Shown piece by piece: positions 8,378 to 9,747 of a DNA stretch of 17,580 nt (its first letter is position 1; every line of letters starts with the position of its first letter). The DNA comes from a virus (Duplodnaviria > Heunggongvirae > Uroviricota > Caudoviricetes), in IMG/VR virus record IMGVR_UViG_2563366883_000005, positions 1 to 17,580 of that record; one strand, written 5' to 3'. A program made the position numbers and the translations under genes. Under the pieces are notes generated by a model. It did not search any database. It worked only from the letters and a program-made list of their open reading frames with translations, and was not told the origin of the DNA.

Positions 8378-9541
8378 TCAGAACTGATAAGTCATACCAA
8401 CAGCAACGATATCATCCGTTGCAATGCCCGCATCCCTGGTAAACTTATTCTCATCAACCAGATTGATTTTATAATCAACATAGGTGGACATATTTTTATT
8501 GAAGTAATATTTCGCACCTACGTCAACATACTTAACCAAATCCTGGTCACCATAGTTTTTACCACCTACAATGACATCCTGAGCACGAGACTGCAGGAAT
8601 GCCAGAGATGGACGCAGACCGAAATCAAACTGATACTGCAGTACCGCTTCAAAGTTTTGCGCTTTATCTGCAACTCCTTTATCACCAAAGGTCGTCAGAT
8701 TCTGAGTTTCGGAATATGTTGTAGCCAGGTAAAGGTTGTCAGCATCGTATTTTAGTCCGACTCCCCACATCTCAGCGTGTTTACCTTTTGCAACACTACC
8801 GGAATCAACAACGATCTGCTTTTCAGTCACTTTACCGGTTAAAGGATCAGTTTGTTCAATCGTCAGAGTACCATTCAGACCTTTTTCCTGATTATTGGTT
8901 CGGTCCGCATTAATATATGCGGCAACGATACCAAAACCTTCATATTCATAACTGGCTGAGAAACCGTGACCATCACCATTAGCTTTCCGGAGATCACCCC
9001 GATCATTTTTACCCTGGTACTGTGCCGCAAAATTCAGGCCATCGACAAGCCCAAAGAAATCTGTATTACGATAGGTTAATACCCCGGAAGTACGGGCTGT
9101 CATGAAGTTATCGGTCTGGGTCCAGCCATCACCGCCAAACTCTGGTAATACGTCAGTATAAGAACCAACATCGTACGCAATACCATAGTTACGACCATAA
9201 TCAATGGTGCCAAACTCACCAAACTTCAGACCTGCAAATGCAAGACGGGTTTTATTACCCGCAGCACCCTCTGATTCAGCTTTATTACCAGAGAACTGAT
9301 ATTCCCACTGACCAAAACCAGTCAACTGGTCATTAATCTGAGTTTCACCTTTAAAGCCCAGACGTGCGTATGTCTTATCTCCATCATCCCCCTTATCACT
9401 GGAGAAATAATGGAGTGCAGTTGCACGTCCATACACATCAAGTTTATTGCCATCTTTATTGTATACTTCTGCAGCCTGCGCCCCCGCTGCAAAAATTACA
9501 GCTGCTGCCACAGCTGAAAGTGCCACTGTCATTTTTTTCAT
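8378..9541 (-). CDS. General diffusion porin, OmpC/OmpF/PhoE/NmpC (Lc-like) family, phage-borne
   Basis: 387 aa. Signal peptide [23 protein letters not shown], then mature N-terminus [15 protein letters not shown]. Internal porin motifs ([40 protein letters not shown]) and C-terminal [19 protein letters not shown] 7 nt upstream. Closest by eye to remembered NmpC/PhoE sequences. Confidence 0.9.
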
Positions 9542-9747
9542 GATTTAATCCTTATTTAAACTGAACTATTCATGCATAGAGATGTCATGAACAAAACTCA
9601 AAATATTGTAAATTAAATTACGGGTTCAATTTTTATTTTGTTTCAAAATGTAAAAAAACAACTTTGATAGCACTTTATGTCAAGACAAAACAAAAATAAC
9701 AAGCAAGCAAATTAATAAACGATGCTTTTAGGTTTTTTCTCAAAAAC
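9542..9747 (-). promoter_or_regulatory. AT-rich porin upstream region with an OmpR-box-like sequence
   Basis: Minus-strand TTTACATTTTGAAACA (plus coords 9639..9654) matches the first 16 nt of the ompC C1 OmpR site as remembered (TTTACATTTTGAAACATCTA). A second TTTACA-containing repeat lies nearby and a TTGACA hexamer at plus 9678..9683. The region is markedly more AT-rich than the flanking tail genes. Confidence 0.4.

Follow-up and report, generated by a model that had tools for sequence, protein, structure and literature searches.

The stretch of DNA analyzed here (the window: positions 1 to 17,580, or 17,580 nucleotides, of IMG/VR record IMGVR_UViG_2563366883_000005) is the late region of a lambdoid Escherichia coli prophage with an HK97-like head and a lambda-like tail. 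Positions 8182 to 9747 of its late tail operon form a self-contained moron cassette that encodes a complete porin and is inserted between the minor tail genes M and L. Upstream of the porin gene lies a sequence resembling an OmpR binding site, and its structured 3′ untranslated region (3′UTR) contains a stretch with complementarity to the translation-initiation regions of the host genes ompF and ompC. We consider it probable (about 0.6) that the cassette is a porin-replacement module, in which the phage porin is made and host OmpC and OmpF are partly displaced. Phage porins with an inhibitory 3′UTR are already known from the Lc/NmpC-ipeX systems; what appears to be new, judging from the comparisons below, is a distinct porin lineage residing in a different phage module; its putative regulator differs as well, and its dual-target antisense element is clearer. 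No description of an M-L porin cassette was found in the searchable literature. Feature coordinates are collected in Table 1.

The late region is read off the minus strand, in the order head genes, H, M, porin, L, a second insert, K, I, and J. A preliminary description of this DNA had proposed that the porin interrupts a normally contiguous M-L pair, and this was borne out: profile matches to M and L flank the porin, and in the porin-less related phages Stx2a_WGPS6 and PhiR12_5 the two genes overlap by 1 nt. Because of this overlap at the empty sites, the insert is delimited as 8182 to 9747 (1,566 bp). Its 5′ limit, directly adjoining the M stop codon (TAA, 9750-9748), is the one given in the preliminary description, whereas the 3′ limit given there (8378) falls short of the true end at 8182. 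A 99.8% identical locus in E. coli CP55_Sichuan forms part of a whole prophage with HK97-type head and lambda-type tail genes. The G+C content is 25% in the porin upstream region, 44% in the porin gene, and 37% in the 3′UTR, compared with 54-57% in tail genes M, L, and H.

Each cassette junction (9752-9762 and 8184-8194) bears a degenerate copy of the ancestral M-end/L-ribosome-site sequence (AGGTrrT): the left junction reads CAGGTAATAAG, the right one GGGTGGATGTT, and the empty sites CAGGTGGTGAACTGATG. M therefore retains its C terminus and L its Shine-Dalgarno sequence; in the junction alignment, the L ribosome-binding site GGGUGGA is placed between the cassette terminator and the L ATG. These copies suggest that a short sequence was duplicated when the cassette entered, leaving the M C terminus and L translation intact. 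Insertion between genes that are adjacent in related phages, together with deviant base composition, is characteristic of a moron, as are an own promoter and an own terminator; here the terminator is clear and invariant, and the upstream region shows conserved blocks but was negative in a consensus promoter scan. Lambdoid-phage morons, such as lom and bor of lambda and cor of phi80 and N15, were reportedly described by Juhala et al. and by Hendrix et al. in 2000. Like the cassette, they consist of an extra envelope-protein gene with its own terminator and deviant composition, located between genes adjacent in relatives, and the product probably functions in the lysogen. Unlike lom, bor, and cor, the cassette carries a full trimeric-type porin plus a putative riboregulator, and its slot is the M-L junction.

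The porin is intact, as the preliminary description had stated. Its 387-residue open frame matched every profile position of the Pfam family Porin_1 (PF00267; 1-337 of 337) with 465.3 bits, the cut-off being 23.7 (E = 1.8e-139), and it also matched solved structures of OmpC (E = 1e-128). Alignment to OmpF, OmpC, PhoE, and Lc likewise brought out the two terminal features described earlier, a cleavable-looking signal peptide and a C-terminal YQF, the latter being the C-terminal aromatic beta-signal (...TYQF). In the same alignment, the L3 motif PEFGGD is kept, and so are the constriction residues (in OmpF numbering, K16 as R, R42, R82, R132, D113, and E117) and G119-G120. From its sequence, the protein is thus predicted to be a general-diffusion porin in which no part is missing, from the Sec signal peptide through the L3 motif and the pore-lining charges to the beta-signal.

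In a neighbor-joining tree, the M-L porins formed a clade of their own, sister to a group comprising Lc/NmpC, Salmonella OmpD, and OmpD-like chromosomal porins, while K-12 OmpC, OmpN, PhoE, and OmpF branched outside these clades. Identity to Lc/NmpC was 68% by tblastn and 72% over gap-free alignment columns, and the lineage is a sister clade rather than being nested within Lc/NmpC; identity to K-12 OmpC was 63.9%. The earlier label of an OmpC/PhoE/NmpC-family protein therefore holds as far as a general porin is concerned but not for OmpC itself. An OmpC orthologue was rejected as a candidate, since the protein lies outside the OmpC branch and is encoded in a prophage tail operon rather than at the ompC-micF locus. 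The automatic label assigned by the Prokaryotic Genome Annotation Pipeline (PGAP), "porin OmpC," thus conceals a distinct phage-restricted porin lineage; the corresponding NCBIfam model was barely passed (496.7 against 484 bits).

That label, together with the exact match to 16 nt of the ompC C1 site described below, could also be explained by a recent capture of host chromosomal ompC along with its OmpR-regulated promoter. We regard such a capture as extremely improbable, because the evidence contradicts it on several counts. The protein is only about 64% identical to K-12 OmpC and falls outside the OmpC/OmpN branch, the upstream region aligns with that of ompC at the box only and lacks a divergent micF, and alleles with a synonymous divergence (dS) of >1 all occupy the same phage slot. 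Moreover, no chromosomal donor with >68% identity was present among the best 80 matches in GTDB species-representative genomes, the closest of which, at 68%, were in Citrobacter sedlakii and Enterobacter spp. A captured ompC promoter was rejected as well, since in a global alignment the box was the only part homologous to the sequence upstream of ompC. Chromosomal OmpC thus belongs to the same family, has the same pore-lining residues, and shares the identical 16 nt of C1, but the cassette has no recognizable C2- or C3-like sites and no micF, and its box lies 113 nt from the ATG, compared with 179 nt in ompC.

Among 5,426 complete E. coli genomes, we found the M-porin-L arrangement in 92 and the cassette alone in 89. 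Carriers, NCTC9112 and 2013C-3033 among them, make up about 1.6% of these genomes, and many of the listed strains bear Shiga toxin-producing E. coli (STEC) designations; a single genome holds at most two copies of the cassette. Nucleotide alleles group at about 100%, 85%, and 79-81% identity. In IMG/VR, 29 contigs carry a porin of 80% identity or more, and M and/or L adjoins it wherever flanking DNA exists. The preliminary description had regarded the location as unusual and had named a common M-L site in many prophages as the outcome that would speak against it. The junction is such a common site, because the porin lies between M and L in all six divergent E. coli alleles fetched and in 28 of 28 IMG/VR contigs that have both flanks. 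For this lineage the slot is therefore the rule, and the location is unusual only relative to Lc/NmpC: none of the 51 IMG/VR contigs with an Lc-type (68%) porin has M or L flanks, and Lc and NmpC both lie between Q and the lysis genes, in agreement with the preliminary description, which had placed them near the latter. The lineage was not found among 50,697 sequenced phage records, 42 of which carry a porin, of Lc/NmpC type and no more than 68.7% identical. Nothing specific on a prophage porin in the tail region was found in the searchable literature. So far, then, the lineage appears to be almost exclusive to E. coli prophages and always to occupy the M-L junction.

Three further observations concern the distribution. 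One IMG/VR contig (L122; IMGVR_UViG_2711768044_000001, 2620-5627) combines a porin 85% and an L 87% identical to those of the window with an M of 44% and a tape measure of 28% identity; more than one tail-module lineage is therefore involved, the cassette either moving together with them or recombining into them. IMG genome 643348545 contributes three prophage contigs (IMGVR_UViG_643348545_000009, _000013, and _000008), each with a 100% identical porin at the M-L junction. P1/P7-like phage-plasmids (E. coli plasmids of about 90-160 kb; phages P7, phi456, and JL22) carry another porin, of 64% protein identity and annotated nmpC, ompC, or ompD, which explains 99 plasmid matches to the porin query.

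The porin frame was intact in all 34 loci examined, and between allele groups dS exceeded 1 with a ratio of nonsynonymous to synonymous divergence (dN/dS) of 0.06-0.10, from which it follows that the gene is old in this slot and functional. These values point to strong purifying selection on the lineage, with the exception of extracellular loop L5. This loop is about 27 residues longer than in OmpF and OmpC (alignment to OmpF, OmpC, and Lc), and indels of 0 to about 30 residues distinguish its alleles; dN/dS within the loop is 0.16-0.4, compared with 0.02-0.1 for the barrel. Local dS in L5 reached 0.92 between alleles whose flanks have a dS of 0.06-0.15, indicating that the loop is exchanged by recombination. 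An AlphaFold2 model renders L5 as a beta-hairpin extension, with a predicted local distance difference test (pLDDT) score of about 52-71.

The upstream region contains several blocks conserved among alleles (AAAGTG, TTTACAT.., ATTGAA, AAATATTTT, GTTCATGACA, and TGAAyAGTTC), and it has the proximal block TGACATC..AATAGTTCA in common with the upstream region of PA-2 lc. The match to an ompC C1 box noted in the preliminary description proved to be real: the 16-mer TTTACATTTTGAAACA (minus strand, 9639-9654) is identical at 16 of 16 positions to the first 16 nt of the K-12 C1 site, and when the whole window was shuffled with its dinucleotides preserved, matches with two or fewer mismatches averaged 0.01. 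We verified the C1, C2, C3, F1, F2, and F3 sites in the K-12 sequence and built an OmpR position weight matrix (PWM) from five K-12 OmpR sites, excluding C1. The 20-mer of the window allele scored 12.3 bits, a value reached by 0.3% of shuffles and above the leave-one-out scores of F1, F2, and C1. This 20-mer was the top PWM match in 10 of 14 alleles and the second in three more. Its TTTACAT is invariant in all 14 alleles, and the second half-site occurs in the OmpR-like variants GAAACA, GTTACA, GTTGCA, and CTTACA. These sequences make OmpR a reasonable candidate regulator of the porin, which would act through one conserved high-scoring site. A second near-match to the C1 16-mer, TTTACCTTTTGCAACA (two mismatches; plus strand, 8780-8795), lies within the L5 codons and is probably due to chance.

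A consensus scan that finds no promoter, very AT-rich upstream DNA, and a porin gene co-oriented with the late operon would all be expected if the cassette were silent or lytic-only cargo, that is, if the lysogen promoter did not work (e.g., because it is silenced by H-NS) and the porin were made only by Q-antiterminated read-through, without lysogenic conversion. Several upstream noncoding blocks are nevertheless invariant across deeply diverged alleles, and a terminator before L makes sense only if non-antiterminated transcripts begin inside the cassette. Purifying selection, too, is hard to explain for a porin made minutes before lysis. Related phage porins are expressed in lysogens, as is the case for PA-2 Lc. 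In an LF82 lysogen, expression of an Lc/NmpC-type prophage porin is about 10-fold above local background (PMC9928086). In view of these points, we consider it improbable that the cassette is silent in the lysogen.

The 3′UTR, which fills the space between the porin gene and the L start codon, folds far more stably than shuffled sequences (minimum free energy, −72 kcal/mol; z = −8.3). Across nine alleles, 47 consensus base pairs were recovered, nine of them with compensatory double changes, and the G-U pairs form only on minus-strand, porin-sense RNA. Identity between allele groups is 76-78%, compared with about 42% expected under neutrality at a dS of 1.1. None of the three conserved hairpins is followed by a U-run, and the transcript should therefore end at the Rho-independent terminator at 8220-8195 (GGGGCGC..GCGCCCC-U7), which stops about 13 nt before the L start codon. 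Both the AT-rich upstream region and the terminator that had been ascribed to the cassette are thus present. An Rfam scan at the gathering threshold gave no match in the cassette.

Between the third hairpin and the terminator lies an AU-rich, single-stranded stretch, here called the seed, with an invariant core (UUAUUACCUU, 8256-8265). Local alignment showed complementarity between this stretch and the translation-initiation regions of the host genes ompF (−23 to +3) and ompC (−14 to +12). The preliminary description had not noted this antisense element, which tells more about mechanism than any other part of the cassette. Its reverse complement resembles a porin leader (AAAAACGATGAAGGTAATAA--AATGA compared with AAAAACCATGAGGGTAATAAATAATGA for ompF −23 to +3), giving 24 paired positions with one mismatch and one 2-nt bulge. 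Against ompC −7 to +11, the window-allele seed matches at 17 of 19 positions, and the seeds of other allele groups match ompC −31 to +11. Only 0 to 2 of 400 dinucleotide shuffles reached the observed antisense scores, while a sense-orientation control remained at background.

Duplex energies (in kilocalories per mole) were calculated for 41-nt seeds against targets spanning −30 to +15, with MicF as the positive control; these seeds replaced a whole-length RNAduplex comparison of the 3′UTR with 140-nt targets, which had yielded meaningless all-against-all pairing. MicF gave −27.4 with ompF, −14.1 with ompC, and −10.4 with the leader of the cassette porin. The corresponding values were −24.0, −21.5, and −9.6 for the window allele and −21.2, −25.2, and −10.3 for the L005 allele. 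Complementarity to ompF and ompC was present in every allele and absent against the cassette's own leader.

The element resembles MicF in having an unstructured 5′ seed with UUUAUUACC.UCAU that pairs with the ompF Shine-Dalgarno sequence and AUG, followed by a terminator hairpin, and the two are alike in length (about 91 nt) and in ompF duplex energy (−27.4 for MicF and −24.0 here). MicF, however, is a separate gene divergent from ompC, whereas the element follows the porin gene, shares its strand, and shows no sign of a separate promoter. Its complementarity also reaches further 5′ in the ompF leader than that of MicF, which suggests an independent origin.

The closest known counterparts are the lc-ipeX pair of PA-2 and the nmpC-ipeX pair of DLP12, reportedly described by Blasband et al. 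in 1986 and by Castillo-Keller, Vuong, and Misra in 2006 (J Bacteriol 188:576). Like the cassette porin, Lc and NmpC are lambdoid-phage porins of the OmpD/NmpC superclade with their own upstream region. Downstream of nmpC and lc, in the region that constitutes ipeX and lowers OmpC/OmpF, there is, as here, a 3′UTR of about 190 nt with three hairpins, an AU-rich antisense stretch, and a GGGGCG..CGCCCC terminator. The 3′UTRs align in short motifs only, among them CUGUUAU..UACC.UUUAUU, which is common to both. We found that ipeX of K-12 DLP12, downstream of nmpC, is antisense to ompC −31 to −3 at 26 of 29 positions (dG −25.3; 0 of 400 shuffles). The ipeX seed thus fits best on ompC −31 to −3, whereas that of the cassette, about 35 nt from the terminator, targets the translation-initiation regions of both ompF and ompC. 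The cassette differs further in its slot (M-L, compared with the Q-to-lysis interval, quuD-nmpC-essD in DLP12 and beside Rz/ORF2 for lc in PA-2), in its separate clade and much longer hypervariable L5, and in having an OmpR-like site where lc has annotated CRP sites. The two pairs are also covered in secondary sources (PMC12197685 and PMC5069750), and according to the review literature ipeX action does not rest on complementarity alone.

That statement on ipeX, together with a match to MicF below threshold and the fact that hairpins and a terminator suffice to explain the conserved structure, lends some support to a simpler account. In it, the cassette is a plain porin moron whose product is made in the lysogen and changes the cell surface, its 3′UTR serves only as terminator and stabilizer, and the likeness to an antisense RNA stems from an inverted porin 5′ fragment and regulates nothing. 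Such an account does not readily explain why the unstructured seed is conserved too, with a 10-nt core that is invariant across alleles whose coding dS exceeds 1, why alleles retain complementarity to ompC or ompF through differing sequences, or why the element discriminates against the cassette's own leader. In addition, the complementarity halts at the translation-initiation region (−30 to +12), unlike that of a decaying gene fragment. We therefore judge the plain moron unlikely, although it is the alternative that we take most seriously.

Under the porin-replacement reading that we prefer, transcription in the lysogen would start from an activator-dependent promoter of the cassette's own within the 206-nt upstream region, with OmpR, at the conserved F1/C1-like site at −113, as the likely activator. 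After passing the three hairpins, the transcript would stop at the strong terminator before L, so that in the lysogen the tail-tip genes would not be expressed from the porin promoter; late transcripts antiterminated by Q would continue past this point. Whether as part of the mRNA or once processed into a separate fragment, the AU-rich 3′UTR stretch would pair with the Shine-Dalgarno sequence and AUG of ompF and ompC and lower their translation, as modeled on MicF for ompF and on ipeX in the nmpC/lc 3′UTR, with the phage porin leader spared. The net effect would be the partial replacement of host OmpC and OmpF by a porin with a different, rapidly diversifying surface, so that permeability would change and the receptors for porin-dependent phages, colicins, and antibodies would be removed or altered. 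By likeness to PA-2, we infer that the cassette may exclude porin-dependent phages.

Several observations weigh against this reading. No sigma-70-type promoter was found in 9542-9747 by the consensus scan, and a search for −35 and −10 hexamers, both visual and guided by conservation, yielded no candidate that is both consensus-like and kept in L122, the most divergent allele, in which the OmpR-like site also scores at background. There is only one good OmpR-like site, the next two 20-mers scoring poorly, as do the genuine C2 and C3 sites of ompC. The MicF match falls far under the Rfam threshold and does not place the element in that family; the antisense similarity might be left over from a porin 5′ end that became inverted; and, given the review account of ipeX, pairing may not be the mechanism even in the known relative. 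Finally, the AlphaFold2 model of the porin, while barrel-like in its strand pattern, is of only moderate confidence (mean pLDDT of 66.6, with L3 below 50).

A fuller version of the porin-replacement reading would be a complete porin swap, combining an OmpR-controlled porin with a 3′UTR antisense RNA that, by pairing as MicF does with ribosome-binding sites, shuts off both host major porins and spares its own mRNA. In that version, L5 would be the record of an arms race with phages, colicins, or antibodies, and the same pairing would explain the OmpC switch-off by ipeX and PA-2. We put this forward as a tentative possibility, somewhat short of an even chance.

Table 1. Features of the porin cassette and of neighboring genes (positions in the window)
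Feature	Position	Strand	Basis or remark
Porin coding sequence, 387 residues	8378-9541	minus	open frame; matches to Porin_1 and OmpC structures
Porin signal peptide, residues 1-23	9473-9541	minus	cleavage between AQA and AE, aligned with the OmpC and OmpF sites
Hypervariable extracellular loop L5 codons, residues 214-254	8780-8902	minus	alignment of 24 distinct proteins
AT-rich (25% G+C) porin upstream region, 206 nt	9542-9747	minus	composition; alignment of 14 distinct alleles
Porin Shine-Dalgarno sequence AAGGA	9549-9553	minus	conserved across alleles
OmpR-site-like 20-mer TTTACATTTTGAAACAAAAT	9635-9654	minus	starts 113 nt upstream of the porin ATG
Structured 3′UTR, porin stop to L start, 196 nt	8182-8377	minus	folding and covariation
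Three consecutive conserved hairpins	8327-8360, 8304-8326, 8277-8295	minus	fold and covariation; no U-run after any
AU-rich single-stranded antisense seed GAUUUAAUUUUCAUUUUAUUACCUUCAUCGUUUUUGAUUUU	8240-8280	minus	unpaired in centroid fold; between hairpin 3 and terminator
MicF-like stretch (Rfam RF00033)	8194-8284	minus	28.3 bits against gathering threshold of 79; E 0.022-0.15; model positions 1-94 of 94
Rho-independent terminator, stem GGGGCGCATTGCGCCCC / AGGGGCGCAUUGCGCCCCU plus U7	stem 8202-8220, U7 8195-8201	minus	stem invariant in nine alleles
Tape measure gene H	10082-13324	minus	
Tail gene M (minor tail protein)	9748-10089	minus	Pfam Phage_min_tail, E 1.3e-27; PGAP "phage tail protein" in the 99.8% identical locus
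Tail gene L (minor tail protein L)	7483-8181	minus	Pfam Phage_tail_L, E 1.5e-92; start agrees with PGAP
Antirepressor (Bro-N + P22_AR_C)	5414-6328	minus	
Small Arc/YlcI-like open reading frame	6391-6654	minus	
Arc-family open reading frame	6618-6890	plus	
Clp-protease-like open reading frame	6890-7426	plus	best PHROG "head maturation protease"
sar antisense RNA	6330-6396	plus	Rfam, 69.4 bits against gathering threshold of 43

The same prophage carries a second tail-operon insert, between L and K (5414-7426), which resembles the immI region of P22. This module is also present in phage PhiR12_5, and an Arc/Ant version occurs in Stx2a_WGPS6. The receptor-binding C terminus of the J protein (263-1162; last 300 residues) shows 98.7% identity to its counterpart in PhiR12_5, an Escherichia phage that plates on E. 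coli C, but just 44-61% to the J proteins of lambda, phage 21, and Stx phages. A literature search found no receptor for PhiR12_5. If the J receptor were OmpC or OmpF, a porin swap would gain a rationale in self-exclusion.

Porins set the permeability of the outer membrane, including the entry of antibiotics; many phages and colicins use them as receptors, and they are also major antigens. If the porin-replacement reading is true, a single prophage cassette would alter permeability, phage and colicin reception, and antigenicity together. The cassette alleles also provide several natural variants of an ipeX-like element with mutable complementarity, which would make the mechanism of porin shut-off by ipeX and Lc directly testable.

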